Positions 10,191 through 52,397 are shown, counted from the stretch's first letter. The stretch: 64,000 nt of DNA from Candidatus Poriferisocius sp. (GCF_965219815.1 NZ_OZ244791.1:34007-98006), one strand, 5' to 3'. Program-made: numbers and translations. The notes: generated by a model from the sequence alone, not told the origin.

Positions 10191-10314
10191 CGGCGAACCT
10201 CGCTCATGGAGAAGTCTACGGCTGGGTCGACGCCTCTTGGTTCGACCTCAATAGATGAGACGAGGCAGCCGCCTGCTCAGGTTCCCGCCTTAGCGCGACT
10301 GGGGGTGGAGACGA

Positions 10315-10734: not shown

Positions 10735-10761
10735 GCAGTTCCTTCGGTGCAGGTGGGGGCG

Positions 10762-11028: not shown

Positions 11029-11079
11029 GAACAGACCCTATCACCAGATGACCATGTTTGTGACCATGAATCTGTGGCC

Positions 11080-11850
11080 TTATCCGGTTTCAGGGCGGCG
11101 GGGGAGGAAGGCGCTGGTTCGCTGGATGTACTCGTCGTAGCCGGGGCGCTTTCGCTTCATGCGGTGCTCCACCATGGGCACGCCGGACACTTTGACCAGA
11201 ATCCAGGTGATGAGCGCCGGGGCGATCAGTCCCACGATTCCGATTGGTGTGGAGGCGGCTACCAAACCGATGCCCCACCAGGCGGTGGCGTCGCCGAAGT
11301 AGTTGGGATGACGGCTATAGCGCCACAGACCACGATCCATCAGCTTCCCCGCGTTGGCCGGATCTGCCTTGAACCGGGCGAGCTGCCAGTCGCCTGTGGC
11401 CTCGAAGCCGAAGCCGACCAGGAACACCACCGCGCCGATCACCCACAGTGCACTCCATCCCCGGTCGGCGTCGCTGATGCCGATCATGAGGGGAAGCGAC
11501 ATCACCCACATAGCCGCGGCTTGCAACCCGAACACCCGCACCAGGCTGGTGAGCCAGAAGCGATCTCCGGCTCTTCGGCGCATCGACTGGTAGCGGAAGT
11601 CCTCTTCTGCCCCGATGTTGCGAAACGCCAAATGGATGGCCAATCGCAATCCCCATGTGGTGGCCATGGCCACCAACAGGGCAGCCCGCACGCCGTGTCC
11701 GTCGGTGACCAGCAGGCTCACCCAGGCCGCCACCACAAAGCCGAAGCCCCACAAGATGTCGACGATGCCAGCGTCTCGAATCGCCACGCTGATGGCCCAC
11801 ACCGCCAGCATCATCCCGGCGATCACCGCCGCTACCACCCATAAGACCAT
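11080..11850 (-). CDS. DUF1295 / steroid-5-alpha-reductase-like polytopic membrane protein
   Basis: Multiple hydrophobic helices. WRYSRHPNYFGD motif is characteristic of the family. Confidence 0.7.
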   Translation of the reverse strand: MVLWVVAAVIAGMMLAVWAISVAIRDAGIVDILWGFGFVVAAWVSLLVTDGHGVRAALLVAMATTWGLRLAIHLAFRNIGAEEDFRYQSMRRRAGDRFWLTSLVRVFGLQAAAMWVMSLPLMIGISDADRGWSALWVIGAVVFLVGFGFEATGDWQLARFKADPANAGKLMDRGLWRYSRHPNYFGDATAWWGIGLVAASTPIGIVGLIAPALITWILVKVSGVPMVEHRMKRKRPGYDEYIQRTSAFLPRRPETG

Positions 11851-11952
11851 CTGCGATCAGCGTAGCGAGCGGTTGGCAGTGCTGGTATTTGGCCGATCAG
11901 CAAACACAGACAGGGTGATTGGAAGTTCGCCCGCCGCGTGTTCCTCGGCAGC

Positions 11953-35133: not shown

Positions 35134-36405
35134 ATGGCTCCGGCTGCCGCGGTGGAAGCGCCGAACATCACCGAGCCCAGCCTCTATCTCGAGGGGATCC
35201 CCCACGACCGCTTCGCCCAGATCCGGGCCATTCCCGGGCTGGCCTGGCATCCCTACGAGAACGGTGGATTCTGGGCCGTGACCCGCCACGCCGAAGTGCG
35301 CTATGTGTCCCGGAACCCGGAGCTGTTCTCCTCGGCCATCGGCCACACCAACCTGTGGGACCTGGAAGCCGACGCGCTGGAGGCCCGGCGGTCGCTCATA
35401 GACACCGACGCCCCCGACCACACTCGGCTTCGGCGCTTGGTTGCCGGCGCTTTCACCCCCAAGAACATCCGCCGGTGGGAAGAAACGGTGCGGGCCATCA
35501 CCATCGAACTGCTCGACGAATTCGTCGCCCAAGGAGGAGGCGACTGGGTGGATATGGTGGCCGCACCTCTGCCTATCCAGGTGATCTTGACCATGCTGGG
35601 CGTTCCCACCGACGACGCCGACTATCTGGTAGAGCTGTCCAACTACCTGGTGGAGGGCACCGGCGACGCCCAGTCGATCCCCCCCGACGCATTCGGAAAC
35701 ACCACCGAGCTTCGCCTGCTGCCGTTCAATAGCCCGGCCAGCCACGCGCTGTTCGAGTACGGCGAGGGCATGCGACAGCAACGCCAAGGCGATCCCCAAG
35801 ACGACTTGGTCTCGCACTTGGTGCAGGCCGAATCTGATGAGGAGCGGATGTCGAGAAGCGAATACCGCAACATGTTCCACCTGCTGGTGTTCGCCGGAAA
35901 CGAGACCACCCGAACTGCCATCAGCCACGGGGGCCTGGCGCTGGCCGCCAACCCCGAGGAGTGGCAGCGGGTGCTTGACGATCCGGCACTGATCGAGTCG
36001 GCCACCGAGGAGATCCTGCGATGGGCCACTCCGGTGATGCATATGCGGCGCACAACCACCACCGACACCGAGCTGGCCGGTACCTCGATCGCCCAGGGCG
36101 ACAAGGTGGTGATGTGGTACGCCTCGGCCAACCGCGACGAGGCGGTGTTCGAGGATCCAGACAGGTTCGATGTAGGCCGCTTCGACGCAAGCCGGGCCAA
36201 CAGCGACCACTTTGCCTTCGGCGGCGGCGGTCCCCACCTGTGCCTGGGGGCCTTTCTGGCCCGGCTGGAGGTCACCGTGCTGCTGGAGGAGATGGCCAAA
36301 CGGTCGATCCGTCTGGAGCAGACCAGCGAGCCGGTGCGAGCCCGGTCCAACTTCGTCCACGGCGTGCTGTCAGTGGGCATGAGGCCAGCCGGGGGGAGCA
36401 ACTGA
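35134..36405 (+). CDS. cytochrome P450
   Basis: Heme loop FGGGGPHLCLGAFLAR. EEILRW. AGNETT. Start is 1 nt after the upstream stop. Confidence 0.9.
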   Translation: MAPAAAVEAPNITEPSLYLEGIPHDRFAQIRAIPGLAWHPYENGGFWAVTRHAEVRYVSRNPELFSSAIGHTNLWDLEADALEARRSLIDTDAPDHTRLRRLVAGAFTPKNIRRWEETVRAITIELLDEFVAQGGGDWVDMVAAPLPIQVILTMLGVPTDDADYLVELSNYLVEGTGDAQSIPPDAFGNTTELRLLPFNSPASHALFEYGEGMRQQRQGDPQDDLVSHLVQAESDEERMSRSEYRNMFHLLVFAGNETTRTAISHGGLALAANPEEWQRVLDDPALIESATEEILRWATPVMHMRRTTTTDTELAGTSIAQGDKVVMWYASANRDEAVFEDPDRFDVGRFDASRANSDHFAFGGGGPHLCLGAFLARLEVTVLLEEMAKRSIRLEQTSEPVRARSNFVHGVLSVGMRPAGGSN

Positions 36406-36620
36406 TGGCCAGCGACGACATGGTGCGGGTGGCCGTCGATCAGGAGCTCTGCATCGGCGGTGGCATCTGCGAGATGCTCGAACCCGAGGTGTTCGAACTC
36501 GACGACGACATAGTCATCTCATCGGTCATCGGCGATGGCCTGCTGCCTCGAGACCGAGCTGCCGTGGTGGTAGACCGCTGCCCCGGCCAAGCCATCTCCA
36601 TAGTGGAAGGGGAGTCTTGA
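36405..36620 (+). CDS. small ferredoxin (single-cluster, P450 redox partner type)
   Basis: 71 aa. ATG overlaps the P450 TGA. CIGGGICE cluster motif and a distal CP. Confidence 0.8.
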   Translation: MASDDMVRVAVDQELCIGGGICEMLEPEVFELDDDIVISSVIGDGLLPRDRAAVVVDRCPGQAISIVEGES

Positions 36621-38083
36621 TGGAGACCTACGACAACTGGATCGACGGGGGGTTCACTCCCCCGCCCAACGGACAGCGCATGGCCACGGCCAACCCGTTC
36701 ACCGGCGAGCCCTGGGCCGAGGTGGCTGACGACCCAGCCGCAGTGGACGACGCCGTCCGGGCGGCTCGGCGGGCGTTTACCGACGGCCCCTGGGCCACCA
36801 TGGCCGCCACCGAGCGAGCCCAGTTGATGCGCCGCCTGGGGGAGCTGCTGACCCGCGACGCCGAGCTGCTGGGTACCGTCGAGACCCGGGACAACGGCAA
36901 GATCATCCGTGAGACGTCGGCCCAGGCCAAGGGCTTGCAGGGCTACTACGAATTCTTCGCCGGAATGGCCGACAAGATCGGCGGCGAGCAGCTTCCCAGC
37001 CCCTCGCCCAACTTCTTGGTGTACACCGAGCGCGAGCCCATCGGGGTGGTGGGGGCCATCATCCCGTGGAATTCGCCATTGGCCCTACTGACCTGGAAGC
37101 TGGCCCCCCTGTTGGCCACCGGGTGTACCGCGGTTGTCAAGCCATCGGACATCACCCCGGTGACCGCGCTGATGCTGGCCGAGCGAACCGCCGAGGCCAG
37201 GTTTCCCCCCGGTGTCATCAACGTGGTGACCGGCGGGGCCGAGGTGGGAGCAGCCATCACCTCCCATCCCGATATCGACAAGATCACCTTCACCGGCGGC
37301 GGGGCCACTGCCAAGCACGTGGCCCGGGCCGCAGCCGACAACCTGACGCCCACGGTGCTGGAGTTGGGCGGCAAGTCGCCCCAGATCATCTTCGCCGACG
37401 CCGACCCCGAGGCGGTGACCAACGGGCTCTTGGCCGGGATCTTCGCCGCCAGCGGACAGACCTGCATTGCCGGGTCGAGGGCCTACATCCACCGGGACAT
37501 CGCCGATGAGGTGGTCGGACGGGTGGTGGCCCGGGCCGATGAGCTGGTGCTGGGCGATCCCGCCGATACTGCCACCGAGATGGGCCCGGCGGCATCCGAC
37601 GCCCAGCGCGACCGGATCTTGGCCATGATCGACCAGGCCCGTTCAGAGGGCGCCACCATTGCCGCGGGCGGAATGATCGACCCCGACCTCGGCGGGAGGT
37701 TCGTGCGCCCCACCGTGATCACCGGGGTGACCAACCAGTCCACCATCGTGCGCGAGGAAGTGTTCGGCCCGGTGCTAGCGGTGCTGGAATTCGAAGACGA
37801 GGACGAAGTGGTGAAGCTGGCCAACGACAGCGACTACGGCCTGGCCGCCGGCATCTGGACCAACGACATCCGCCGAGCCCACCGGGTGTCCAGAGCGCTC
37901 CGGGTAGGCACCGTGTGGATCAACACCTACCGCAACGTGAGCTACATGGCCCCCTTCGGCGGCTTCAAACAATCAGGCTACGGCCGAGACAACGGCCTGG
38001 AAGCCCTCGACGGCTTCCTCCAAACCAAAACCGTCTGGATAGAACTAACCGGCGCCACCCGCGACCCCTTCGTGATCGGTTGA
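36617..38083 (+). CDS. NAD(P)-dependent aldehyde dehydrogenase
   Basis: ELGGKSP and catalytic-Cys region GQTCIAGSR. EEVFGPV. Confidence 0.9.
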   Translation: MMETYDNWIDGGFTPPPNGQRMATANPFTGEPWAEVADDPAAVDDAVRAARRAFTDGPWATMAATERAQLMRRLGELLTRDAELLGTVETRDNGKIIRETSAQAKGLQGYYEFFAGMADKIGGEQLPSPSPNFLVYTEREPIGVVGAIIPWNSPLALLTWKLAPLLATGCTAVVKPSDITPVTALMLAERTAEARFPPGVINVVTGGAEVGAAITSHPDIDKITFTGGGATAKHVARAAADNLTPTVLELGGKSPQIIFADADPEAVTNGLLAGIFAASGQTCIAGSRAYIHRDIADEVVGRVVARADELVLGDPADTATEMGPAASDAQRDRILAMIDQARSEGATIAAGGMIDPDLGGRFVRPTVITGVTNQSTIVREEVFGPVLAVLEFEDEDEVVKLANDSDYGLAAGIWTNDIRRAHRVSRALRVGTVWINTYRNVSYMAPFGGFKQSGYGRDNGLEALDGFLQTKTVWIELTGATRDPFVIG

Positions 38084-38116
38084 CTCTACCCTCCCCACGG
38101 GGCGTACATCTTCCGC

Positions 38117-38321
38117 TCAGTCCAACACCCCGATAGCTCGAAGACGCTCACCAAGGACTTCGCCACTAAAGCGCGTTCGGTCTCTTGAGATGAAATGTAC
38201 CCCAGCCTCCGCAACCACATCTGGGGCACGTTGCGCAACAAGAACTTCAAACAAGAGCATCGTGGCCCCTGTGACGAAACGAACCGACTGGACATATCGT
38301 TCACTGCGAGCGTGGTTGGCG
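38117..38321 (-). pseudogene. 3' portion of the unknown gene split by the IS3-family element
   Basis: Joining 39558 to 38321 keeps the frame open (..YVGTLD|HANHARSERYVQSV...RAIGVLD*) down to TGA at 38117-38119. Confidence 0.55.
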
Positions 38322-38359
38322 TGACCCCCTGAGTTTGGTCCACCTGTTGTGAGAGTTCG

Positions 38360-38674
38360 TTGTCCAGTGTTGCTGGATGGAGGAGGATCACGACTATGGC
38401 GAGGCGAAGGCACACGCCCGAGCAGATTGTGCGCAAGCTGCGGGAGGCCGATCGGCTTTTGGGCGAGGGGGCGGAGATCGCGGATGTGGCGCGGCGTTTG
38501 GAGGTGTCGGAGGCGACGTTTCATCGGTGGCGCAATCAGTACGGGGGCCTCAAGGCCGACGACGTGAAGCGTCTCAAGGAGCTGGAGGCCGAGAACGCGC
38601 GGCTGAAGCGGATCGTGGCCGACAAGGAGCTGGAGATCGACGCTTTGCGGGAGATCAGCCGGGCAAAATGGTGA
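38360..38674 (+). CDS. IS3-family transposase OrfA (HTH + leucine zipper)
   Basis: RRRHTPEQIVRKLREAD...EATFHRWRNQYGGLKADDVKRLKELEAENARLKRIVADKELE is the canonical IS3/IS407-type OrfA. Confidence 0.9.
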   Translation: MSSVAGWRRITTMARRRHTPEQIVRKLREADRLLGEGAEIADVARRLEVSEATFHRWRNQYGGLKADDVKRLKELEAENARLKRIVADKELEIDALREISRAKW

Positions 38675-39528
38675 GCCCGCCGCAGCGGCGCAGAGCCGTC
38701 CGGCTGCTCTGCGAGCGGCTGGGGGTGTCGCAGCGGCGGGCGTGTGAGATCGTCGGGCAGCACCGCTCCACCCAGCGCTACGAGCCGGCCGAGCAGGACC
38801 CCGACCGGGACCTGCGGGCCGAGCTGCGCGACTTCGCCGAGAACCGCCCCCGGTGGGGGTATCGGCGGGCCCATGCGGTGCTGGTGCGCGACGGCTGGGC
38901 GGTGAACCGCAAGAAAGTCCAGCGCCTGTGGCGCGAGGAGGGCCTTCGGGTGCCGCCGAAGCGGCGCAAGCGACAGCGCACAGGAGACTCCGACGCCGAC
39001 GCCGGACTGCTCAAAGCCGAGCACCCCGACCACGTGTGGGCGCTGGACTACCAGTTCGACGCGACCGCGGCGGGCCGCAGGATCAAGATACTGCACGTTC
39101 TCGACGAGTTCACCCGAGAGTCGCTCGCCGACCTCGTGGACCACAGCATCGACGCGGACGCGACGGTGGCGTGCTTGGACAAGATCGCCTCGGCCAGGGG
39201 CCGGCACCCCGAGTTCATCCGGTGCGACAACGGCCCCGAGCTCACCGCCGCGGCCCTGCGCGATTGGTGCGAGTTCACCAGCACCAAGACCAGCTACATC
39301 GACCCCGGGTCTCCCTGGCAGAACCCCTGGGTCGAGTCATACGGCGCCAGAATGCGAGACGAACTCCTCGCCATCGAGCAGTTCGACAGCCTCCTCGAGG
39401 CCCAAGTACTTGTCGCCGACTGGCAAACCGACTACAACACCTACCGCCCCCACTCCGCGCTCGGCATGCTCACCCCAGCCGAATACGCAGACCAATGGGC
39501 AAAAAACAACCCGAAAAAACTCTCATAA
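38670..39528 (+). CDS. IS3-family transposase OrfB (integrase-core DDE domain)
   Basis: -1 frame relative to orfA. WALDYQFD...ILHVLDEFTRE...RCDNGPELT...PWQNPWVESYGARMRDELL...YNTYRPHSALG (D, D, E region). ATG 38670 overlaps the orfA stop (ATGGTGA). Confidence 0.85.
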
Positions 39529-39557
39529 CACCTGGACCAAAAAACGGGGTCCGGTCA

Positions 39558-40339
39558 TGGTCAAGGGTACCGACGTAGAACATTGACGGGTCGCCATAAT
39601 TGGACCTTGTCCTTGATCTCCACAAGAAGTCAAAGACTGTCGTAGGTTCACAGCTCTTATCGATTCGAACCCCCTCGCCTTTCGGAAGTTGCGACCTACC
39701 TAGATTCTGCCTCCGCTCTCTCTTAAGGTCCTCCAGCCTCCTACCTCTCGTTGTCTTCAAACACTTCGCAAGCAGGTCATATGGGTTGGGACTAGCAGCA
39801 AGGTTGCTCACCTCTTGCGGGGGCTGGTCGAATCCCTTGAAGCTCAGCGCCCCATGTCGTGTGCAAGTAAGCGACCAAGGCTGCGGAAAGATAGGAGAAC
39901 CCTTGACTGAAGCAGCAAGAGCCTTGAGTGTCTTGCGGTGACTCGTCGGAACTGCGTTATTTCTGACGAGTAGGAAACCTGCAGCAGCACGTGATGTCGC
40001 ATAGTACGCGTATACGTTGTTCCAAAGGTTCTGCAGCATCAGCCGAGGGTCGTCATCGTCCACGGCGTACAGGCCTAGCTCTTGAGTCCATGCACCGAGC
40101 AGGAGTTCCCTCAAGCCTTGTTCATCACCTTTGAATGGCTGTCCGGTTAGCTTCTTGACCGGCCGACGGGCCTTGAGGTCGTTGACTAGTGGCTGGTGGA
40201 AATCGATTCCGTATCGATCCTCAATCACTCCAGCGATGGCCCCCCAGTAGCCCATGTAGGTCGTGAAGGCCCTAGCCTCGGCCGTGTCAGCGTCTATGAG
40301 GCCATAGACGTCCAGAGTGTTGAAATCGACTGGGGACAT
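39558..40339 (-). pseudogene. 5' portion (about 260 codons) of an unknown gene split by the IS
   Basis: ORF 39470-40339 runs into the IS right end at 39557. Its last ~29 codons are IS-derived. GGAGAG RBS upstream of ATG 40339. Confidence 0.65.
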
Positions 40340-40621
40340 TCGAAAGCTCTCCGCCTGGTGATGCTCGTCTTGTCAGGCCAGAGTTCTTGGGAAGTGTGAA
40401 CTCCCCTTGGCCTCTTGGCATATGTGTGCAATACCCAAGCGGGCTGCAGGAGCCCTGCCCTGCTCCCACCGCAACCATATCCCCATCGTGTGACAATCGA
40501 AATCAATTTACCGTTACAACCTTCGGCGTACGCTCAAAGACCGGACCTCCTGGCTGTCGTACCCAGTTGGAGTAGGAGAAACGTCTGAGTCGCCCAGCTA
40601 GATCTGCCCAGACTCGACCTC

Positions 40622-43594
40622 TCAACCCGCCGCTTGCGTCACTAGGTCGTCAGGGCTGTTTGCCACCTTGTAGTCAACCCCAATTGCTTTGAAGTGCTTT
40701 TCCGCGCAGTCGATCTTGATGTTCTCCACTTCTCGGCGTTCGACAGCGTCGAGGCTGCCTTTTGTCTCGCGCACGAGGTAGAGCTTGGCCTCGGACTCAA
40801 GCATGATCGCCCAGTCAGGGTTGTAGGGGCCGACTGGTGTGTCGACCGTGAACCACGAGGGGAGCTTGATGTAGAAGCGGACATCCCTGTTGTCGTCTAG
40901 CGCTTTGGCGAAATGGTGCTCGACCTCGGAATCGAACTCGACGTGGTCGTACGGGGTCTTGTCCTCGTTCTGCACTTTGTAGAGGTTGCTGGCGTACCGC
41001 TCGATCGCCTCTTCGGCCTCGGGCTCAAGGCGGCGCATCTCCCACATCGAGCCGGCGACCTCCTCGTACTCGATCCCGCTGAGCACCTGCGACCGGAGCA
41101 CCATGGTGATGGTTCTCGAAGCAAGCTGGAGGAACGCTTGAGGGTTGACGAGGAAGTCGTCCAGGCGTCCTGATTCGGTGAGAATCCTCACGATGGTCTT
41201 GCGGGTCAGGTCGGTCTCGTTCTGGAGGTCGGCGAGGATGTCCGGCAGGAAGGTCGGCCTTTCGGTGTCGAGTGCCTGTTTCGTCTGCACTTCTGTTGCC
41301 TGCAAACCCGAGAGCTTGTGCTTGATGTCGGCAACCCGGATCGTGATCTTCGGCACCTCGACCGCCGGGGCTTCCCGAAGGGTGACCACGGTGTCGGCCA
41401 CCAGTGCATCGGTGTCGAGCGCGACCCGGTACCGGGTGCGGACGCTGATCCGATTCCAGAGTTCTTGGAACTCGGGATCCAGTGTGACTTGCTTCCGGTA
41501 GCGGACCGTCTGGCGCTTCCGCGCATCGCGAATCTGGATCAGCTCAACGCGCTTCGAGATCACCCTGGTGATGTCCTCCCTTGAACCCTCATAACCTTCA
41601 GGAACCGGGAGAACAAACGACTCGTCAAGCGGGTTGAACGAAGGGAGTACCTGGCCTTCGCTCCCGATGATGCCCTCCGCTTCGAGGTGGTCCCACACGA
41701 TGCTTGATCCGTCGGCACCGAACTTCTCGCCCGGATTCACCGGATGGCCTGCGGGCCGGAGCAGACGGGTGAAAGCTGTTCGCTCGACGACGCCGAACTT
41801 CCGCCCGGTGTCCTCCTCGTATTCGGTCTGGAGGGCCCGGGCGAAGTCTTCGTAGGCTTCGTTCGCGATCACCGTCAGCCGGTTGACATTGCGGTCTCGC
41901 ACCCGCTCCCCGTCGTGGTTGACAGGCAGGCGAAGGCCGCGACCGATCTCTTGCCGCTTGCGGTCGGCCGATCTGGACTCGTTGAGTGTGCAGATCTGGA
42001 ACACGTTGGGGTTGTCCCAACCTTCCCGGAGGGCCGAGTGGCTGAAGATGAACCGAAGCGGCTCGTCGGGGCTGAGAAGTCGCTCCTTGTCCCGCATGAT
42101 CAGCTCGTAGGTGTCTTCGTCGGCCTTGGTCCTGCCGCTCGTATCCTTCAGCTTCTCGGGCTTGTTCCGGGTGGCCTTGTCCTTGCTGAAGTAGCCGCCA
42201 TGGACCTCGGTCGCTGCTGAGAGCTTGAGAGCGGCATACTTTGGCTTGGCGGCGAGTTCGGCGTAGACCTCCTCGAACCACTCAGCAAACTGGCCGGGCC
42301 GGGGCCCGTCGTCGGTGTACTGGCGGTAGTTGGCCACTTTGTCCAAAAAGATGAGCGACAGCACCTTGATGCGCTTGCCTTGCCGATGCAGGGAGAGCTC
42401 CCGATCGAGATGCTGTCTGACGGTCTCCCAGATTTGGGCCCGGCGGACTTCGTCGCCGAATCCTCCTTGTGGCTCGCCTTCGTAGACGATCTGGCCAGAG
42501 TTGAACTCAACATTCTCGTCGCCCGCACGAAAGGAGATGTTGGCGACAATGAATCCATTGGCGTATTCCTGCCGCTCATCAGACAGCGCATGGAGGTCGG
42601 CGCCCACTTTGACCCAGACCGATTTCTGCCCACCAGCCGAACCGGTGCCTACGTTGATCTGCACCTGAGCCCGCATCCTCTTCTGATCGGTCCTCACCAC
42701 CTTGACAAAGGCGGCGTTGAGGTTCTCCTCACCGACGACGCTGGCCACCTCGATGCTCTTCACCAGGCGCATCTCGTGGGCTTCGACCGGCCCGAGCCGG
42801 TAGATCGGGTTGTAGTCCTTCTTATGGGTTGCGGAGTACCGCAAGGTACACATCGGGTTGAGCCGCTCGATGGCCGCAGCCGCCTTTTCCGATTCCATGT
42901 TCTGCGGCTCATCGACCACCACGACCGGACGACAAGATTGGATGAACTCGATCGGGCGCCGCCCCGACATGGCATCGCTGGCCCGGTTGATCACGTTGGC
43001 GTTGCGGGAACCCTCCTCGCCATCTGCTGACACGTCCTTGCGGAAGGCATCGATGTTGAGGATGAGGATCTGCATGGTGTTGGAGGTGGCGAACTGCCGT
43101 ACCCGGCCGAGATTCTTCGAGTCGTAGACCTGCGCGTCGAACGGAATCGAATACAGAGACTGAAAGTGGTCTCGCATGAGTTTGATGCTGGCCAACACGC
43201 CCTCTCGGACAGCAACGGATGGGACAGCAATCACGAACTTGGTGAACCCGTAGTGCTTGTGCAGCTCAAACATGGTTCGCAAGTAGACATACGTCTTGCC
43301 GGTCCCCGTCTCCATCTCAATCGTGAAGTGCGGCCCTCCAAGCTCCGCGCTGACCGGAAGCTCGTTCTCCTCCTGGACCTGCTGGAGGTTAGAGAGCAGA
43401 TCGGACTCTAGGGAGTCGCCCGGGTCGGGGTTCCCGACTCCCAACTCGGTCAACGCGAGCTGGGCGCCCGTGGCGGTGGCAACGCTGAACTCACCGCTGA
43501 CCAACGGCATCCCGGAGAACAGGTCGACCGCAGCCTGCACCGCGTCGTGCTGGTACGCGAGATCGGGCTCGAACTTCAGCCTGACCGAGGACAA
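40622..43594 (-). CDS. res: Type III restriction endonuclease subunit (Res; SF2 helicase + C-terminal PD-(D/E)xK nuclease)
   Basis: Walker A ETGTGKTY. Motif II VVVDEPQNM. C-terminal PDWAIML...LYLVRETKGS nuclease motif. Starts 2 nt after mod. Confidence 0.9.
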   Translation of the reverse strand: MSSVRLKFEPDLAYQHDAVQAAVDLFSGMPLVSGEFSVATATGAQLALTELGVGNPDPGDSLESDLLSNLQQVQEENELPVSAELGGPHFTIEMETGTGKTYVYLRTMFELHKHYGFTKFVIAVPSVAVREGVLASIKLMRDHFQSLYSIPFDAQVYDSKNLGRVRQFATSNTMQILILNIDAFRKDVSADGEEGSRNANVINRASDAMSGRRPIEFIQSCRPVVVVDEPQNMESEKAAAAIERLNPMCTLRYSATHKKDYNPIYRLGPVEAHEMRLVKSIEVASVVGEENLNAAFVKVVRTDQKRMRAQVQINVGTGSAGGQKSVWVKVGADLHALSDERQEYANGFIVANISFRAGDENVEFNSGQIVYEGEPQGGFGDEVRRAQIWETVRQHLDRELSLHRQGKRIKVLSLIFLDKVANYRQYTDDGPRPGQFAEWFEEVYAELAAKPKYAALKLSAATEVHGGYFSKDKATRNKPEKLKDTSGRTKADEDTYELIMRDKERLLSPDEPLRFIFSHSALREGWDNPNVFQICTLNESRSADRKRQEIGRGLRLPVNHDGERVRDRNVNRLTVIANEAYEDFARALQTEYEEDTGRKFGVVERTAFTRLLRPAGHPVNPGEKFGADGSSIVWDHLEAEGIIGSEGQVLPSFNPLDESFVLPVPEGYEGSREDITRVISKRVELIQIRDARKRQTVRYRKQVTLDPEFQELWNRISVRTRYRVALDTDALVADTVVTLREAPAVEVPKITIRVADIKHKLSGLQATEVQTKQALDTERPTFLPDILADLQNETDLTRKTIVRILTESGRLDDFLVNPQAFLQLASRTITMVLRSQVLSGIEYEEVAGSMWEMRRLEPEAEEAIERYASNLYKVQNEDKTPYDHVEFDSEVEHHFAKALDDNRDVRFYIKLPSWFTVDTPVGPYNPDWAIMLESEAKLYLVRETKGSLDAVERREVENIKIDCAEKHFKAIGVDYKVANSPDDLVTQAAG

Positions 43595-43596
43595 GG

Positions 43597-45504
43597 TCAG
43601 ACAACCTTGAGGGTGATGTCGGCACCGCCGCTCTGGTTGGCCGATCGGATCGTTTGCATGGCGTTGACCTTCATCTCGTCGTCATCACCGAAGCACCGAT
43701 CCAAGACGAGGATGAGCGGCGGCCGTCTCGCGACAATCTCCTCAACGGCTTCGAGAGTGAGCTTCCCGTCTACGACGATGACGAGCTGGCCGTCAGCCAC
43801 GGAATGCAGCACCACGCCAGCGGCTTCGACCACATCGACCTGCTCGGTGAGCTCATACCCGGCCTTGAGCAACAGTTCGGCCACGATTTCTTCAGCCGTT
43901 GACGACTGGCTCACCCCGTCAGCGAACAGCGACAGCCTTGCTTCCAGTGCCTCACCGCCGTCAGCCTCGCCATCCCAAACGCGGAAGTTGGACTCAGCCA
44001 GCGCGAAGCTGCGGAAGCCCATTGGCCCTGGTGGTTCAAGTGTCCCATTGCCATCAGCAGTCAGCGCGGTTGCCGCACCCTTGAGCCGAGCACGCGTGAT
44101 GCCAGCGACGGTCTCGTAGTCGTCGTATCCCGTCGGCTCGGGAAGCTGCACCAGCACAAATCGCCGGTTGCCGCCGTCCTCGGCATTGAGCTTCCACACT
44201 GCCTCACCAGTGGCCCCTGACCCCGCGAAGAAGTCCAATACGATGTCTCCTGTCGCCGGGGTTGTTGCGAGTCGGAGCATTCGCTCAATCAGCCGCGTCG
44301 GCTTCGGCGTGTTGAAGACGGATTCCGAGGAAGCAAATTCGACTCGTTCGAGAAGTTCCTTCTTGGCCTCATCAGTGTGGCCAACTTCCTCATACTTCCA
44401 GAGCGTCTGCGGGACCCTCCCCTCTCGCACCTCACTGAGGAAGCGCTTGACCGCCGGTGTTCCCGAACCGTCAGCCCCGAACCAGATGCGGTTGTCCTCA
44501 ACCATCTCCTTGAACTTCTCCTCCGAGTAGCGCCAATAGGTGCCCGGAGGCGGACCAGGGATTGGACGGCCTGACGGCGTCTCGATCGGGTAGGTGCCCT
44601 TGCTGTAGTAATTGCGGGCAGATAGGTCACCGCTTTTCCACGGGCCGCGTGGATCATCGTCCGGATTCTGGTAGCGGGCCTCCATTTTTTCCGTTCTCGG
44701 CAACGGATTCGGTTCCCACTCCGCCGCGTTCCTCGCGTAGACGAGGACGTAGTCGTGATCCTCGCTGAAATGCCGTGCCGAGTTCTTGGGACCGTACACC
44801 TTCTGCCAGATGCAGCTGGCGACGAAGTTCTCAGGACCGAAGATCTCGTCCATCAGCAGGCGCAGGTTGTGTACCTCGTGGTCGTCGATGGTCATGAAGA
44901 TCGCACCATCCGGCCGCAGCAGGTTCCGCGCCAGCGCCAAGCGGGGAAACATCATCGAGAGCCAGTTCGAGTGGTAGCGCCCACTCGTCTCGGCATTGGC
45001 CGACAACCTCTTCCCCGACTCATCACTCTGACCGGTAAAGCGCAGATAGGTGGCAAGCCCCTCGCGGAAATTGTCCGGGTAGATGAACTCCTTGCCCGTG
45101 TTGTACGGCGGATCGATGTAGATCATCTTGACCTTGCCGTAATAGGCCCGCTGGAGCAGCTTGAGCACCTCCAGGCTGTCGCCCTCGACTACCACATCAC
45201 GGGCGACATCGGCGCGCAGCGACCGGTCGGCATCCGGACGGAGACTCCCGACCGAGGGCTCCTGCATCGCAGCCGCCGCAGCCGCCTTCCCCGGCCAAGA
45301 CAGCCCATACCGCTCCTGCTGAGGATCAACCGCCCTCTGCCCCATCGCCACCGCCAGGTCCTCAGGCACCAACTCCATCTCAGAGAACGCCTCAGGAACA
45401 AGATCCCGAAGAACTGCATACCGATCGTCCTTCGGAACCAAGCTCGTCAGATCGAACCTCTCAATCGCCCCGCCAGCAGCGTCCGCTGTCATCCCAACCC
45501 CCAT
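43597..45504 (-). CDS. mod: Type III R-M DNA methyltransferase subunit (Mod; beta-class N6-adenine/N4-cytosine MTase)
   Basis: Motif IV IYIDPPYNTG precedes motif I DFFAGSGATGEAV (beta-class order). Immediately upstream of res. Confidence 0.9.
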   Translation of the reverse strand: MGVGMTADAAGGAIERFDLTSLVPKDDRYAVLRDLVPEAFSEMELVPEDLAVAMGQRAVDPQQERYGLSWPGKAAAAAAMQEPSVGSLRPDADRSLRADVARDVVVEGDSLEVLKLLQRAYYGKVKMIYIDPPYNTGKEFIYPDNFREGLATYLRFTGQSDESGKRLSANAETSGRYHSNWLSMMFPRLALARNLLRPDGAIFMTIDDHEVHNLRLLMDEIFGPENFVASCIWQKVYGPKNSARHFSEDHDYVLVYARNAAEWEPNPLPRTEKMEARYQNPDDDPRGPWKSGDLSARNYYSKGTYPIETPSGRPIPGPPPGTYWRYSEEKFKEMVEDNRIWFGADGSGTPAVKRFLSEVREGRVPQTLWKYEEVGHTDEAKKELLERVEFASSESVFNTPKPTRLIERMLRLATTPATGDIVLDFFAGSGATGEAVWKLNAEDGGNRRFVLVQLPEPTGYDDYETVAGITRARLKGAATALTADGNGTLEPPGPMGFRSFALAESNFRVWDGEADGGEALEARLSLFADGVSQSSTAEEIVAELLLKAGYELTEQVDVVEAAGVVLHSVADGQLVIVVDGKLTLEAVEEIVARRPPLILVLDRCFGDDDEMKVNAMQTIRSANQSGGADITLKVV

Positions 45505-45783
45505 CGCACCATGAAGCAGTCCCCGGATTCCATCTGTCCCGCTAGTCGATCCCCAACATGGTCTATCAGTTCATCCCCCCAAGGCACCGCACCTCGTCTG
45601 GTCAAGTCTTGCTGAGATCCTTAGGCGATACACCAAACGGCCAGCAGACTACGTAGCGCAGCCGCTACGGAGAATGGTTCATGGGACAAAGTAGCAGGTC
45701 AGAGGCGCAATTTCGTGTCTAAGGGACCAAACTGTCACAACTGCCATCTACCATTGGGCGCCAATCCAAGAAACGAGGAAGAC

Positions 45784-46431
45784 ATGGCAGATGAGAAACT
45801 CCCGTACGTAACTAGCACTGGGTCGCTGACCAAGGCCCTTACGAAGATCCAATCCGCGGCAACTCCAGATAGGTTCACACAGGATTTTCTAGCGACGAAG
45901 TTAGGACTATCTGGTGGGGGCGCTAAACCAGTAATTCCCTTCTTGAAGCGCACCGGATTTCTTGCCTCCGATGGAACTCCGACCGAGACCTACAAACACT
46001 TCAGAAATCAGAAACAGCGAGGGGCAGCAGCAGCTGCAGCCCTCCGAACAGGCTACGCACCCCTATTTGAAGCGAATGAGTACGCCTACGAGCTCAACGA
46101 CGACGACCTCCGAGGGCTGATTGTGCAAATCACAGGAGCCGAAGAGGGCTCTCGAATGCTGACAGCGATTGTCGGCTCCTTCAAGGCCCTGCTCGAACTC
46201 GCTCAATTCGACGAGTCGGACGATCACGAGGCCGATGGTCCTGGCTCGGCGACCAGCGGAGACGACGGCGACGACCCCACATCCTTGCCGGACCAAGGTC
46301 AAGACGGGAAGGAGTCCTTGCTCGGAGACCTGAGCATCGGGTACACGATCAATCTCCACCTACCTGCCACCTCTGACATTGCTGTATTCAATGCCATCTT
46401 CAAGAGCCTCCGAGAGAACCTCCTTCGATAG
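45784..46431 (+). CDS. DUF5343-like protein (family recalled from memory)
   Basis: ATG 45784 with a GAGGAAG RBS; the ORF extends to GTG 45715. KLPYVTSTGSLTKALTKIQSAATPDRFTQDFLATKLG. Acidic low-complexity linker. Coupled to the next gene (2-nt gap). Confidence 0.6.
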   Translation: MADEKLPYVTSTGSLTKALTKIQSAATPDRFTQDFLATKLGLSGGGAKPVIPFLKRTGFLASDGTPTETYKHFRNQKQRGAAAAAALRTGYAPLFEANEYAYELNDDDLRGLIVQITGAEEGSRMLTAIVGSFKALLELAQFDESDDHEADGPGSATSGDDGDDPTSLPDQGQDGKESLLGDLSIGYTINLHLPATSDIAVFNAIFKSLRENLLR

Positions 46432-46433
46432 TC

Positions 46434-47021
46434 ATGGCAGCAGCTGAAGACAGACTGAAGCTATTTTCCCTCTCAAATCAGCTCGTCGAGCACGAACTCG
46501 ATCGGGTAGAGCGAGAGTTCGCTATCGATCTGCGGAGACAGCACAAGCAAGTGCTTGACTCTGACGAGGACTATTACCCACAGATCGAGCAGGAGTACCG
46601 CTCAGAGGCCGCGGCAATGGCACCCCGTTACGAAGTCTTCTACTCACTCGAGAAATCCATCCGGCGGCTAATTTCTGACCCGCTCGAAGCTGAAGAAGGC
46701 CCCAACTGGTGGACCAGCGGTCGCATTCCCTCCACATTGCAGCAAGAGGTCGCAGACAGACAGCAACGGGAAATGGACAGCGGCACGACGCCCCGGTCGT
46801 CCGACCCCATCGACTTCACAACCTTCGGTGAGCTTGGTGAGATAATCAAGAAGAACTGGGATGTCTTCGACTCCCTGTTCACGAGCGTGAGGGCAGTTGA
46901 GAAGGTCATGAGCAGTCTCAACACGCTCCGAGGCCCGATCGCTCACTGCTCCCTGCTAGCTGAAGACGAGGTGCTCCGGCTCCGCTTGGCGGTTCGTGAT
47001 TGGTTCCGTCTGATGGAGTAG
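46434..47021 (+). CDS. Swt1-like HEPN-domain protein (predicted RNase)
   Basis: C-terminal R-x4-H motif LNTLRGPIAHCS. Upstream DFTTFGELGEIIKKNWDVF block is typical of Swt1-type HEPN. Confidence 0.65.
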   Translation: MAAAEDRLKLFSLSNQLVEHELDRVEREFAIDLRRQHKQVLDSDEDYYPQIEQEYRSEAAAMAPRYEVFYSLEKSIRRLISDPLEAEEGPNWWTSGRIPSTLQQEVADRQQREMDSGTTPRSSDPIDFTTFGELGEIIKKNWDVFDSLFTSVRAVEKVMSSLNTLRGPIAHCSLLAEDEVLRLRLAVRDWFRLME

Positions 47022-47229
47022 CCGGCACGAGCTGCAAATCGTGGAGCGGCCACACGCCACCGATTACCAGCGACAATAGGGCCCGACCAATGGAAACGCA
47101 GCCAGGCACCCATCGGTCAAGTCAGCGGATAGTCGATTCTCGCCGATCAACCCTCACACTCAGTTAGGGCGAGCATCAGCTTGGGGGACCAGCACGAAGG
47201 CCAGTGCCCTGCATTCACAGCCATTTCGA

Positions 47230-47424
47230 CTAGCGCTTCTTGCGCTTGGCTCTCTCCTGGCTTTCTTTCACGTACTCGTCGAAGAGCTCTGCTGCAACAC
47301 GGCGACCAAAGGCCTTGGGGTCCACAGGCTGGGGATCCCAAGGCTGGGGAAACGGCAGGCGTGCCCTTTCGGAGCTACCCTCCGAGAGTTTCTGACGCAG
47401 TGCGTCCTCAGCGCTTCTCGTCAT
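47230..47424 (-). CDS. 64-aa protein with basic C-terminus (ERAKRKKR), unknown function
   Basis: ATG overlaps the stop of the upstream 438-aa gene (ATGA, 47421-47424). No recognisable motif. Confidence 0.5.
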   Translation of the reverse strand: MTRSAEDALRQKLSEGSSERARLPFPQPWDPQPVDPKAFGRRVAAELFDEYVKESQERAKRKKR

Positions 47425-48737
47425 GGCCTCACCCCCATTATGCCAGCGTTTCGGAGCCCTTGGTCGCGACCAAAGTAGCGCGGGTTGAGCTCGGGCGCGA
47501 AGTAGTGCTTTCGCCTAATCCACACTAGCCCGTCTCCCTTCGAGATCACGGCCACATCGACCGGGCCCCCAACCGTCTCAGCTTCCGGTGTAACCCGTCG
47601 CTTGAAGGAGGTGAGGTTTACTAGAGCCTCTGCCATCTCCGCGATTTCCTCCTTCGGGAGCAGCTCCACGATCGACATGATCGGGGCAGAGTTGTTTGCC
47701 TTCAGCAGCTCACGAAAGTGATCCTGGAAGCGATCGGCGATCACCGCTTTGGCCGCAGCCATCTCATTGAGTAGCTGGGAATGCGCAGCCGGAGAAAGAG
47801 CGCCTTTCACCCGTCCACTGAAGTGGTCGATCAACAGGCCAATCGTCTGGTCGACCAATTCGCTGAGTGCCAGTCGATAGTCAGGGTGAATGCCCTCCAT
47901 GAAGGTGGCCACCATGTCCTCCTGCGCGAAGGGGTAGATGCCGGCGGACTGGTCCTTTCCAATGCAGACGCCGCCGACCCTCCACGCTCGAACACGGCCA
48001 GCGACAATGCCGTCGACGAAGTACTGAGACATCGCAGGAAAGAGTTGGTCAGTACCAAACCCCGTTACTACGACTCCGCTACCCCAAGGCGACTGCTGGG
48101 CCGCCCTCAATGAGGCTCGGGCCATGACCCGAGCTCGTCGCTTGATCACCGAGTTCGTAGGTAACCCGTTGAGATATTCGTCTACAAACGCCGGCCAGTC
48201 TTTGATTGCAGCGCTTATCTCTCGTCCGACAATTGCCGTGCTGATGCCATCGATGAAGCCAATCTGCTGCAAATGGCTGATCCGAGCATTGACCCTGCTG
48301 AGAATCTCGCTCCTGATCTGAGCATTAGTGAGCGGAGTACCTGCTGATGCAGCAGCCAATGCAGTGCTCTCTACCGAAGTTCGCACCATGTCCAGCTCCC
48401 ACCACGCGGTCATAACCACACGCTCCCGTTGCTCTTGTCTGGACACATGTCGAACCAAGGAAGGCAAGTAGGCAACTAGCGCTTCTGCATATTCCTCAAC
48501 TGAGCCGTAGGAGGTTGAGGCAAGGTCACGGCGGTGCTCCTTTATGACGGTTTCCCAAGGGATCGACGCAAACGAACCCCCTCCATAAACCATTACTGCA
48601 ACCGGCTCAACGGTTGAGAGGGGAAATAGCTTGTTCGCGGTGTTGTAGATCTTGCGACCTGGCGCACCAACAGTGGCGGCGCTGTCGGCAGCGATAGCAA
48701 CGGCACCACGATTGAGGATCACCACTTCCGCTGTCAT
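47421..48737 (-). CDS. divergent proteasome-beta/HslV-like Ntn hydrolase with a large helical insertion
   Basis: M-T1AEVVILNRGAVAIAAD17SAAT...NK35LFPL...PVAVMVYGGGSF mirrors the proteasome beta T1/D17/K33-LF layout. C-terminal GGPVDVAVISKGDGLVWI resembles the terminal beta strands. Strong AGGAGGTGA RBS. Confidence 0.65.
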   Translation of the reverse strand: MTAEVVILNRGAVAIAADSAATVGAPGRKIYNTANKLFPLSTVEPVAVMVYGGGSFASIPWETVIKEHRRDLASTSYGSVEEYAEALVAYLPSLVRHVSRQEQRERVVMTAWWELDMVRTSVESTALAAASAGTPLTNAQIRSEILSRVNARISHLQQIGFIDGISTAIVGREISAAIKDWPAFVDEYLNGLPTNSVIKRRARVMARASLRAAQQSPWGSGVVVTGFGTDQLFPAMSQYFVDGIVAGRVRAWRVGGVCIGKDQSAGIYPFAQEDMVATFMEGIHPDYRLALSELVDQTIGLLIDHFSGRVKGALSPAAHSQLLNEMAAAKAVIADRFQDHFRELLKANNSAPIMSIVELLPKEEIAEMAEALVNLTSFKRRVTPEAETVGGPVDVAVISKGDGLVWIRRKHYFAPELNPRYFGRDQGLRNAGIMGVRP

Positions 48738-48844
48738 CTATCCTTCACCTCCTGAGCGATAGATATTTACACGGCGCAGTGACAACTTCGCGGACCTGGC
48801 TCAGCGTCATGTGCGGCAGGCTCAGCTGGCGTGATGCCGATGGC

Positions 48845-49396
48845 CTACTCAGAGGCGTTGGTGGTGACTGCTCGCAAGAGGCGAGCCAAGTCGTGCTTCT
48901 CCGCGACGCTGAGTCCTCCGCTCATTTTGCCTTCGAACTCGTTGAACTGGGGGAAGAGTTGCTCGATGGTCCTGAGCCCGGAGGAGGTGAGGGCCACTGT
49001 GACTCGGCGGCGGTCCGACTGCATGCGGGTGCGCTCCACCCGGCCTTGCTTCTCCAGAGTGGTCACCATTCCGGTCAGCGTGCCCTTGGCCAAGTCGCAT
49101 TCGGAGGCCAGTTGAGCGGCTTCCATCTCTCCCCACACCCACAGCACCCACAAAATGGTGAAGCCGCCCCACGACAAACCGGCCTCAGCCAGCACCTCTC
49201 GCTCCGCCCGGCGCCGAACCGCCGCCGCAGCCCGATAGATGTTGGAGATGGCCTGCATCGAGTCGAAGTCGAGAGGCCGATCGCCCAACCGAGCCTGGAT
49301 GTCTACCTCGGCATCGAGGAGGCGTTCGGTGGGAGTGGAGTCGGCTGGCATGGGTTCTCTAGGTAGATTGCCAGACATGCCCGAATACCGCCGCAT
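48845..49396 (-). CDS. MarR-family transcriptional regulator
   Basis: wHTH LASECDLAKGTLTGMVTTLEKQGRVERTRMQSDRRRVTV. Alternative start at ATG 49351. Confidence 0.85.
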   Translation of the reverse strand: MRRYSGMSGNLPREPMPADSTPTERLLDAEVDIQARLGDRPLDFDSMQAISNIYRAAAAVRRRAEREVLAEAGLSWGGFTILWVLWVWGEMEAAQLASECDLAKGTLTGMVTTLEKQGRVERTRMQSDRRRVTVALTSSGLRTIEQLFPQFNEFEGKMSGGLSVAEKHDLARLLRAVTTNASE

Positions 49397-50261
49397 CCTC
49401 CTCGACGGCTATCCCTGTGATGTTGAACGCGTTGGCGATCAGCTGGTTTCCGGCGATGGCCGATCGGTGGCCATCGACGAAGCCGTCCATCTGGCGCCGG
49501 TGACGCCCACCAAGATCATCTGCATCCATCTGAACTACCGCAGCCGGGTTGAGGAGTTCATGACCAAGCTGCCCCCGGCGCCCACCTACTTTCACAAGCC
49601 CATCACCGCGCTTACCGGGCACAAGAGCGACGTGGTGCGCCCCGAGGGGTGCCAGTGGCTGAACTACGAGGGCGAGATTGCCATTGTGATCGGAAAGACC
49701 TGCCGAAACGTGTCCCCTGCTGAGGCGGGGGACTACATCGCCGGTTACAGCGTGGCCAACGACTACGGCCTCCACGACTTCAGGGACACCGACGCGGGGT
49801 CGATGCTGCGAGTGAAGGGCAGCGACACCCTTTGTCCCGTGGGCCCTGGTCTGATCACCGGCTGGGACTTTCGGGGCAAGCGCATCCAGACCATCGTGAA
49901 CGGCGAAGTGAAGCAGGACGCCACTACCGACGAGATGGAATGGGACATGCACTACATCGTGGCCGACATCGCCCGCACCATCACGCTGGTGCCCGGCGAC
50001 ATCCTCTTGTCGGGAACGCCGGCCTACTCCCGCCCGGTGGTGCCCGGCGACGTGGTCACCGTGGAGGTCGAGGGCTTGGGGGCGCTGACCAACACCATCG
50101 TGTCCGGCCCGACTCCCATCCGAGACGATGTGGGTGCGCAGCCGTCCGACTCCGAGGAAGTGCAGTCCACTGCCAAGGGCGGGGATTGGGAGTTCCGAGG
50201 CATCCGCGCCCCCCGAGGTCCCGGTGCCCAGCGCTACGAGTCCACCGTCGAGGAGGAATGA
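49377..50261 (+). CDS. fumarylacetoacetate hydrolase (FAH)-family isomerase/decarboxylase (HpaG-like)
   Basis: KIICIHLNYRSR, YEGEIAIVIGK and GTPAYS are typical FAH-family blocks. Start chosen at ATG 49377. Confidence 0.8.
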   Translation: MPEYRRILLDGYPCDVERVGDQLVSGDGRSVAIDEAVHLAPVTPTKIICIHLNYRSRVEEFMTKLPPAPTYFHKPITALTGHKSDVVRPEGCQWLNYEGEIAIVIGKTCRNVSPAEAGDYIAGYSVANDYGLHDFRDTDAGSMLRVKGSDTLCPVGPGLITGWDFRGKRIQTIVNGEVKQDATTDEMEWDMHYIVADIARTITLVPGDILLSGTPAYSRPVVPGDVVTVEVEGLGALTNTIVSGPTPIRDDVGAQPSDSEEVQSTAKGGDWEFRGIRAPRGPGAQRYESTVEEE

Positions 50262-51765: not shown

Positions 51766-52002
51766 ATGACTGTGCAGATCACGATTCGAGGGGTACCTGA
51801 GGAAGTCCGCGATGAACTTTCAGCTCGGGCTGCGCTCAACCGGCAATCCATGCAGGAGTACTTGCGCGGCGAACTTGAGCGCATTGCGTCCCGGCCAACG
51901 CTGCGTTCTTGGCTTGACGAAGTCCAGCGCCGCAAGGCCGCAGCGGGAACCGGCGTCCCGACTTCGATGATCCTCGAAGACCGAGACGCCGATCGGAGGT
52001 GA
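51766..52002 (+). CDS. vapB: RHH/FitA-like antitoxin (VapB)
   Basis: MTVQITIRGVPEEVRDELSARAALNRQSMQEYLR. 4-nt overlap with the PIN gene. Confidence 0.8.
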   Translation: MTVQITIRGVPEEVRDELSARAALNRQSMQEYLRGELERIASRPTLRSWLDEVQRRKAAAGTGVPTSMILEDRDADRR

Positions 52003-52397
52003 GTGCCGTCGTCGACGCCTCCGTGCTGGTGGCCGTGCTCGTCGACTCTGAGCATGACGGCCCATGGGCAGAAGAGGCGATCTCAACCGGCCCTCTGGCC
52101 GCACCAGAACAGGCTCTGGTCGAAGCCACCAACACCCTTCGTCGACAGGAGCTAAGGGGCGTCCTCACACGACTGGAAGCGACAGCCGCCCACCGAGACC
52201 TGCTCCGCCTTGATATTGACCTCTACCCGTTTACGCCTTTCGCTGACCGCGTATGGGAACTCAGGGCCAACCTCACCAGCTACGACGCCTGGTACGTGGC
52301 GTTGGCCGAAGCGCTCGATTGGCCGCTGTTGACCCTCGACCGCCGGATCAGCCGAGCAACCGGACCCTTGTGCCAAGTGGTGACTCCCCAACCCTAA
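51999..52397 (+). CDS. vapC: PIN-domain toxin (VapC)
   Basis: SAVVDASVLVAVL start with conserved Asp. C-terminal LTLDRR pattern. Confidence 0.8.
   Translation: MSAVVDASVLVAVLVDSEHDGPWAEEAISTGPLAAPEQALVEATNTLRRQELRGVLTRLEATAAHRDLLRLDIDLYPFTPFADRVWELRANLTSYDAWYVALAEALDWPLLTLDRRISRATGPLCQVVTPQP

Follow-up and report, generated by a model that had tools for sequence, protein, structure and literature searches.

A defence island in the gap between convergent aldehyde dehydrogenase and MarR genes of Candidatus Poriferisocius, and two orphan gene families within it

How does a compact block of restriction, toxin-like and unnamed genes come to lie between two catabolic genes, and what might the unnamed members be doing there? 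The question is raised by a stretch of 64,000 nucleotides (referred to below as the window) from the genome of Candidatus Poriferisocius sp. (GCF_965219815.1, NZ_OZ244791.1:34007-98006), a sponge-associated, uncultivated member of the Acidimicrobiia and thus an actinobacterium. At positions 38084-48844 of this window a 10.8-kb insertion of low G+C content separates convergent genes for an aldehyde dehydrogenase (ALDH) and a MarR-family regulator (Table 1). A reading made from the DNA sequence alone, without database searches (the sequence-only reading), had described the block as a multi-system defence island within an aromatic/amine catabolic gene neighbourhood. The comparison with related genomes presented here identifies it as a defence island that occupies a hotspot between core genes, and features of this type are already known. 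In all probability it is a mosaic of anti-phage genes, and the hotspot is the gap between the convergent ALDH and MarR stop codons.

Table 1. Features of the island and its borders, followed by those of a second gene cluster, in window coordinates
Feature	Position	Strand	Comment
Aldehyde dehydrogenase (ALDH), left flank of the hotspot	36617..38083	+	Stop TGA 38081-38083; Pfam Aldedh for the same gene in L001 and L006
Left junction CTCTAC	38084..38089	.	Like spacer plus MarR stop of the empty sites (CC-CTA-C)
325-aa gene (U325), 3' fragment	38117..38316	-	Collinear with the intact gene, L001:9340-10317
IS3-family insertion sequence	38317..39557	+	1241 bp; TG...CA ends; imperfect terminal inverted repeats
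Insertion sequence orfA	38360-38674	+	Pfam HTH_Tnp_1
Insertion sequence orfB	ends 39528	+	Pfam HTH_21, rve, rve_3
325-aa gene (U325), 5' fragment	39558..40339	-	All-alpha orphan family, ~320 aa; weak HEPN-like signals
Type III Res	40622..43594	-	PADLOC REase_III, E 4.3e-289, full length; Pfam ResIII, RE_endonuc; NCBIfam PRK15483
Type III Mod methyltransferase	43597..45504	-	PADLOC MTase_III, E 1.1e-176, full length; Pfam N6_N4_Mtase, E 5.6e-37
DUF5343 protein (PDC-M34A)	45715..46431	+	Pfam E 2e-44; PADLOC E 1.3e-48; likely start ATG 45784
Swt1-like HEPN protein (PDC-M34B)	46434..47021	+	Pfam HEPN_Swt1, E 2.5e-10; PADLOC E 2.2e-36
64-aa partner ORF	47230..47424	-	Start overlaps stop of the 438-aa gene by 4 nt; motif DPxxFGRRxAxELFDEY
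438-aa proteasome-beta-like N-terminal-threonine hydrolase	47421..48737	-	Two large helical insertions; phrog_5990, E 9e-103, full length
Right junction CCTAC	48844..48848	.	Overlaps MarR stop (CTA 48845-48847); kept in window, L006, L092 and empty sites
MarR-family regulator, right flank	48845..49396	-	Followed by FAA hydrolase and a second ALDH; Pfam MarR for the same gene in L001, L006 and L092
Response_reg_2 protein	1930-3462		Second cluster
962-aa HATPase_c_3/HEF_HK/HATPase_c protein	3459-6347		Second cluster
C5 DNA methylase	6593-7477		Second cluster
XRE-HTH plus Peptidase_M78 protein	7966-9171		Second cluster; PADLOC RmrA/CapP models
PIN protein	10315-10734		Second cluster
HipA	11953-13242		Second cluster

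The gap between the ALDH and MarR genes

One genome per species was scanned with the ALDH protein and then searched by tblastn with all of the island and flank proteins; the comparison covers about 17 genomes or contigs, of which L006 and L092 were located through the 325-aa gene of the island, here called U325. ALDH orthologues with 89-96 % identity are present in 13 related genomes, and the MarR orthologues are 88-97 % identical. Four sister species have an empty site, with the two stop codons 1-2 nt apart and the sequence TGA-CC-CTA in L012, L027 and L039 and TGA-C-CTA in L013. Elsewhere the gap is filled to differing extents, by a spacer of 135 bp in L009, an insert of 1.4 kb in L014 and one of 4.6 kb in L025, and different cargo again is found in L006 (an E2-type cyclic-oligonucleotide-based anti-phage signalling system, E2-CBASS, together with a 379-aa protein, Patatin, AAA_21, RloB and GmrSD), in L092 (NYN, an SMC-like ATPase and GmrSD) and in L010, where a related Type III restriction-modification (R-M) system, just 81-82 % identical to that of the island at the nucleotide level, has other neighbours. 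Since the relatives have either empty sites or differing cargo, the island genes are accessory rather than core, and the ALDH-MarR gap is a hotspot. The sequence-only reading had proposed that the block was inserted, unless relatives should prove to hold the same genes as conserved core; the synteny comparison bears out the insertion, and the genes are not core in these relatives. That the region is ordinary core genome, its low G+C reflecting nothing but local gene content, is next to inconceivable: other stretches of the window do come near 60 % G+C, but this explanation is refuted by the four empty sites and by the alternative cargo of other relatives. In L008 and L018 the cluster of MarR, FAA hydrolase (FAH) and second ALDH (ALDH2) genes is itself missing, and the variable region is thus nested.

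When the insertion sequence is left aside, the G+C content of the island is 59.0 %, compared with 65.9 % in each 10-kb flank, and the island is the lowest-G+C stretch of 10.7 kb within the window. Its 1-kb bins are displaced from those of the 17-64 kb background (Mann-Whitney p = 9e-6), and the genes of the island have a G+C content at third codon positions (GC3) of 0.59-0.81, compared with 0.82-0.88 in those of the flanks. Lower G+C is also seen at 2-17 kb and 26-29 kb of the window, so that low G+C by itself is not unique to this block. Both the lowered G+C and the gene content reported in the sequence-only reading were recovered, every gene that it recognized being found at or within a few bases of where it had been placed, and so was its strand pattern, in which all of the island genes are on the minus strand except the transposase genes of the insertion sequence and the HEPN pair.

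Chromosomal defence hotspots flanked by core genes have been mapped in the E. coli pan-genome (PMC10121019). The ALDH-MarR site resembles these in being bracketed by two core genes, in being empty or variously filled, and in lacking a dedicated integrase or tRNA. It differs in that the host is an uncultivated sponge symbiont and in that the site is a gap of 1-2 nt between convergent stop codons. Chromosomal defence hotspots are also a feature of Pseudomonas aeruginosa.

At its left border the island reads CTCTAC and at its right border CCTAC. Since conservation of the left copy does not extend to L006 and L092, we place little weight on this repeat, which could be a target duplication, albeit a weak one that is too short to convince. 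The earlier statement that flanking repeats were absent was thus not strictly correct, since a very short pair does exist, although its substance stands in that the pair is unpersuasive as a duplication; the accompanying statement that there was no integrase or tRNA holds without qualification. Pfam and PADLOC scans revealed no integrase in the island, the sole tRNA of the window is a tRNA-Ala at 26206 and none is near the island, no long terminal repeats were found at the island, and no Rfam family matched within 37.5-49.5 kb. These absences, and the lack of conservation of the left repeat, bear on the proposal that the block is a self-mobile element, whether a transposon, a degraded integrative and conjugative element or prophage, or an integrative island, whose own recombinase has since been lost. 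We regard this as very unlikely. It would account for a short CTAC-containing repeat at both ends, for the IS3-family element inside the island and for the fact that U325 homologues ride elsewhere on conjugative elements, on elements like the actinomycete integrative and conjugative elements (AICE-like) and on serine-recombinase elements. But the IS3-family element has a target-site duplication (TSD) of its own and is absent from a contig, L001, that otherwise carries the same island, and the cargo of the gap varies module by module while the genes at its ends persist, a pattern that piecemeal turnover at a hotspot fits better.

Further rearrangements were seen around the same site in the relatives. 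The insert of L014 (L014:11481-12710) contains two copies of a 116/138-aa ORF starting METVTLVDLAPILG, and a 118-aa ORF between the copies resembles the C-terminal part of ALDH, which suggests local duplication. The Type III res gene of L010 (L010:14139-20481) is in two pieces, ORFs of 599 and 362 aa separated by some 1.5 kb with a high GC3, and is probably interrupted by another insertion. L039, whose ALDH-MarR site is empty, has some 7 kb of genes with lower GC3 between MarR and FAH (L039:12021-19284), where the neighbourhood seems to have a second point of insertion. A VapBC-like pair is located in the window at 51766-52397 (PIN toxin, 51999-52397), between ALDH2 and an acyl-CoA thioesterase gene; the same pair directly adjoins the island-flanking ALDH in L018, where MarR-FAH-ALDH2 is absent, and the catabolic cluster is therefore itself variable.

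Recognized systems and recent history of the island

Two systems recognized by PADLOC models, the Type III R-M system and the candidate system PDC-M34, cluster in the island, in keeping with its earlier description as 'multi-system'. In Type III R-M the Mod subunit methylates one strand of a short asymmetric site, and Res cuts incoming DNA that is unmethylated. The res and mod genes of the island are separated by 2 nt. Res has the SF2 helicase motifs ETGTGKT and DEPQ and a C-terminal PD-(D/E)xK endonuclease domain, and in the translation of mod the DPPY motif precedes FxGxG, the order found in the beta class; the start of mod may alternatively be at 45378, and the gene call in L001 is 593 aa. 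The system is like those of EcoP15I and EcoP1I in having adjacent mod and res genes on one strand, a beta-class N6-adenine methyltransferase layout and a Res that combines SF2 helicase and PD-(D/E)xK parts, and it is predicted to be intact.

The DUF5343 and Swt1-like HEPN genes match the A and B models of PDC-M34 and are adjacent on the same strand with a gap of 2 nt. The translated HEPN protein retains an intact Rx4H motif (LRGPIAH). PDC-M34 itself is merely a computational PADLOC candidate, and our literature search found no paper on DUF5343 or PDC-M34. The two genes probably constitute a toxin-antitoxin (TA) or abortive-infection pair, in which the HEPN protein, as an RNase with an Rx4H motif, would be the effector.

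U325 is divided in the window by the IS3-family element. There is nothing unusual about this element, which has the overlapping orfA and orfB frames, DDE transposase domain (rve), TG...CA ends, imperfect terminal repeats and short TSD of its family. The TSD is the 4-bp sequence TGGT, present at 38313-38316 and 39558-39561, and is defined against the allele of L001, which reads GAGCG-TGGT-CAAGGG across the insertion point and lacks the element. The sequence-only reading was right that a gene had been split, and the IS3-family element is what splits it, but the boundaries of the element and its TSD place the 3' fragment at 38117-38316, not 38117-38321. L001 is a Logan contig from another sample; apart from the missing insertion sequence it has the same island, 99.97 % identical, with 3 mismatches over 10,121 nt of island and MarR side; counted from 37838 to 49678, with the insertion sequence excluded, the mismatches likewise number only 3. 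From the existence of such a near-identical copy without the element it follows that the disruption of the 325-aa gene is very recent. Across 36376-37840, L001 and the window differ at 75 positions, which fall in two tracts inside ALDH. This mosaic is the pattern that would be expected from homologous recombination mediated by the flanks, or else the contig is chimeric.

A history of the island can be suggested from these arrangements. Its oldest residents would be the gene for the proteasome-like protein and its small partner, next to MarR, and U325, which adjoins ALDH in the window and in L006 and L092; the small gene and enzyme remnant retained in L006 and L092, and a dS of U325 close to that of MarR, speak for this. 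The simplest reading is that the ancestral order was MarR, enzyme and partner, 325-aa gene, ALDH, and that the enzyme has been lost at least once. The Type III R-M and DUF5343/HEPN genes would have arrived later, between the partner and U325, and the IS3-family element then split U325, very recently as the comparison with L001 shows. Exchange of cargo probably proceeds by homologous recombination in the flanking core genes, and would need no site-specific recombinase.

The proteasome-like protein and its small partner

The 438-aa protein has more than 3000 relatives, all of them unnamed. An AlphaFold (AF2) model of it, with a predicted local distance difference test score (pLDDT) of 84, matches 20S beta subunits and Anbu in Foldseek at a probability of ~1.0, and its best match in BFVD is a phage 'proteasome beta' (TMt 0.66), so that its predicted fold is the alpha-beta-beta-alpha sandwich of the proteasome beta type. 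Full-length searches against PDB sequences gave only noise. When a family profile restricted to the core, with the helical insertions removed, was compared with the whole PDB sequence set, the sole protein match was the proteasome beta subunit of T. acidophilum; the match is weak (E = 0.13), the matched segments are collinear, and T2, D18, K36 and GGPIDVAVISKGDG are paired with Thr1, Glu17, Lys33 and GGMIDVAVITRKDG of that subunit respectively. T2, D18 and K36 are invariant in the family alignment, whereas G52, the candidate for the Gly47 oxyanion-hole position, is not invariant in alignment A1. A threonine codon immediately follows the start codon (Met, Val or Leu) in 80/80 metagenomic and 4/4 phage homologues, so that no propeptide is needed. 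Taken with the structural model, these residues identify the 438-aa protein as a predicted proteasome-beta homologue in which Thr1, Asp17 and Lys33 are conserved, and with this architecture it is probably an active Thr1 peptidase that may act in defence. Apparent domain fusions in longer members of the family were traced to mis-called starts or read-through and add no extra domains.

Judged by its description, and specifically by the positions of the insertions and the taxonomic spread, the protein probably belongs to PMI-4 ('proteasome homolog with multiple insertions'; Fuchs, Alva & Lupas, 2021, PMC8665760). This is a large family present in Proteobacteria, Firmicutes, Actinobacteria, Bacteroidetes and phages, with long insertions after H1/H2 and between H3/H4, and its describers found the genomic context of homologues uninformative (PMC8665760). 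The island protein shares with it a beta-like core with Thr1, Asp17 and Lys33, the lack of a propeptide and insertions at the same places; what differs from the published account is the context seen here, in which a small ORF (about 60 aa) is a conserved partner and the setting is one of mobile elements and defence islands. The N-terminal nucleophile (Ntn) fold and catalytic triad are also common to HslV, Anbu and BPH, and Anbu and BPH resemble the 438-aa protein further in having a Met-Thr start and no propeptide, in which most HslV proteins differ (PMC8665760). Unlike HslV and Anbu, however, the 438-aa protein is accompanied neither by an AAA+ partner such as HslU nor by an Anbu-type operon, the ORF of about 60 aa being found instead, and it exceeds HslV, Anbu and BPH by some 250 residues of helical insertion, which may preclude the stacking of rings.

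The small partner is almost constant. Homologous small ORFs are present in L002-L005, and an ORF of 35-80 aa overlaps or abuts the enzyme stop codon in 74/76 metagenomic loci, those with enough downstream sequence. In many lineages the partner has the motif FFPKSF...DPxxxGxxLAxExL, and in actinobacteria DPxEFGRRxAxxLFxxY. L006 (9408-9611) and L092 (839-1081) have an orphan copy of the small gene, while of the enzyme gene only 24-50 nt at the 3' end remain, and comparison of these orphans with the window copy gives a dN/dS of ~0.2. Retention of the partner after loss of the enzyme fits an antitoxin-like role for the small gene.

In phages the pair occupies accessory positions. In a Providencia phage it has the Q antiterminator/Dam genes on one side and the holin gene on the other, in Stenotrophomonas phages it is beside the lysis genes but on the strand opposite to them, in a Porphyromonas prophage it is found amid accessory genes, and nine Streptococcus prophage and satellite records have it at their ends. 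The Porphyromonas homologue, which is located between portal and neck genes, was considered as a capsid or prohead protease and rejected, since genes for both are annotated elsewhere in that phage. On chromosomes the pair is found in a TA-rich region (L002), among housekeeping genes (L005) and with large helicase and nuclease genes (L004); in the last case (L004:2349-9716) it adjoins genes for a 1806-aa RNase_T/DEAD/Helicase_C protein, a UvrD-like helicase and an SNase-domain protein, and this block may be another defence cluster. The neighbours in 23 metagenomic loci, counted as a pool without a control set, are mixed housekeeping genes, with some Type IIG R-M, Hma, DRT, HEC-01 and PIN genes. 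The sequence-only reading had advanced 47230-48737 as a candidate for a new defence function through guilt by association, and the accessory positions in prophages and satellites agree with this, while the many copies amid housekeeping genes do not. A search of the literature on proteasome or Ntn proteins in connection with anti-phage activity found nothing relevant.

The co-translated partner most likely either restrains the enzyme or is its substrate, and infection would then release the activity; the two genes may thus form a module of the TA-like or abortive-infection kind. We tentatively propose, as a possibility rather than an expectation, that the Thr1 hydrolase and its partner of about 60 aa constitute an unrecognized but widespread two-gene immune or abortive-infection system, spanning at least four phyla, with the protease as sensor or effector. 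The partner would be an inhibitor, a substrate or a trigger, and the carriers would be prophages, phage satellites and chromosomal hotspots. Rather doubtful, to our minds, is a simpler account in which the pair hitch-hikes without a direct anti-phage role, as a plain module of the TA or addiction type or as a protease with a regulatory function in mobile elements. Many copies do stand alone among housekeeping genes, that of L002 is in TA-rich surroundings, and the persistence of the small gene after the enzyme in L006 and L092, under the constraint indicated by its dN/dS, is the order of loss expected of a toxin and its antitoxin; the uninformative context reported by Fuchs et al. (2021; PMC8665760) points the same way. 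Yet there is heavy overlap between TA modules and defence by abortive infection, the accessory positions that the pair occupies in temperate phages and at the ends of satellites are typical of anti-phage cargo, and the other contents of the hotspot in which it sits are R-M, CBASS and GmrSD.

The 325-aa gene, the wider window and significance

An exhaustive profile search found 885 cluster representatives of U325, almost all of about 320 aa. Its model is all-alpha with a pLDDT of 92, and a Foldseek search of this model against PDB gave no match. The near-invariant residues are Y31, W84, Y112, Y113, H134, T196-T197-R198, R241, R243, Y248, E283 and R317. Distant members of the family show weak matches, all in the same region, to Pfam PF05168 (E 2.7e-4, below its cut-off), to PADLOC HEPN_IX (E 5.6e-4) and to HEPN chains in PDB (E ~0.1). 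The Rx4-6H motif is absent, however, the conserved motif being R241-x-R243-S-N-Y248 and H134 lying well downstream of the nearest conserved Arg, and membership of the HEPN superfamily is therefore not established. Comparison by hhalign found U325 unrelated to the HEPN_Swt1 protein of the island.

In the island the gene lies directly downstream of the Type III res, and in L093 directly downstream of a Type I hsdR; in L006 and L092 its neighbour is GmrSD, and in L007 there is a Type ISP system nearby. Its dS of ~1.0 is similar to that of MarR (0.76), and a dN/dS of 0.13 indicates purifying selection. U325 is a one-gene accessory carried by mobile elements and defence islands, and in this genome it is a pseudogene disrupted by an insertion sequence. 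The guilt by association claimed earlier for its two fragments (39558-40339 plus 38117-38321) is sound as far as recurrence next to R-M and GmrSD systems and on mobile elements is concerned; a defence function is something that this recurrence may suggest. It is unlikely that U325 is instead an anti-defence gene, or some other fitness factor of mobile elements, whose place beside ALDH marks the oldest part of the insertion. Its occurrence on conjugative, AICE-like and serine-recombinase elements would be explained in this way, as would the tolerated disruption and the lack of any PADLOC match beyond the weak one to HEPN_IX, but the purifying selection, the HEPN signals, weak as they are, in three libraries and the repeated proximity to restriction systems and GmrSD argue otherwise.

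A member of the U325 family in L177 (L177:6103-12174) follows a large serine recombinase gene and precedes genes for QueC, a PfkB/nucleoside deoxyribosyltransferase-like protein and an Ogg-HhH protein, a set reminiscent of the 7-deazaguanine DNA-modification loci.

Several points weigh against the interpretation of 38084-48844 as a mosaic anti-phage island assembled by recombination in its flanks. Neither orphan has a named relative in the standard collections, the 438-aa protein having no family in Pfam, PADLOC or NCBIfam and U325 none in Pfam, PADLOC, NCBIfam or PHROG, and the 438-aa pair, the 325-aa gene and PDC-M34 are all candidates only for an anti-phage role. The mixture of housekeeping and defence genes around the pair in the 23 metagenomic loci does not demonstrate defence enrichment statistically. 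The order of cargo acquisition is argued by parsimony from three genomes in which the site is occupied, the case for recombination comes from one Logan contig, L001, whose assembly may be chimeric, and the flanking repeat of 4-6 bp is too short to point to any mechanism.

Elsewhere in the window, positions 1930-13242 hold a second defence-like cluster of lower G+C (Table 1). The tRNA-Ala gene (GGC; 26206-26302) is at the edge of the mildly lower-G+C stretch at 26-29 kb, which begins with a lipoprotein-like ORF and ABC-transporter-like ORFs.

The mosaic island described here is of interest in three respects. A sharply bounded hotspot provides a practical place in which to look for further defence genes in a lineage with few experiments. 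The island also gives a genomic context to an orphan family of proteasome homologues, in the form of a near-constant small partner and a setting in mobile elements; if the proposed role is true, a defence or TA system based on a threonine protease would represent a new effector class. U325, with about 900 cluster representatives, is a second orphan that tracks restriction systems and mobile elements.

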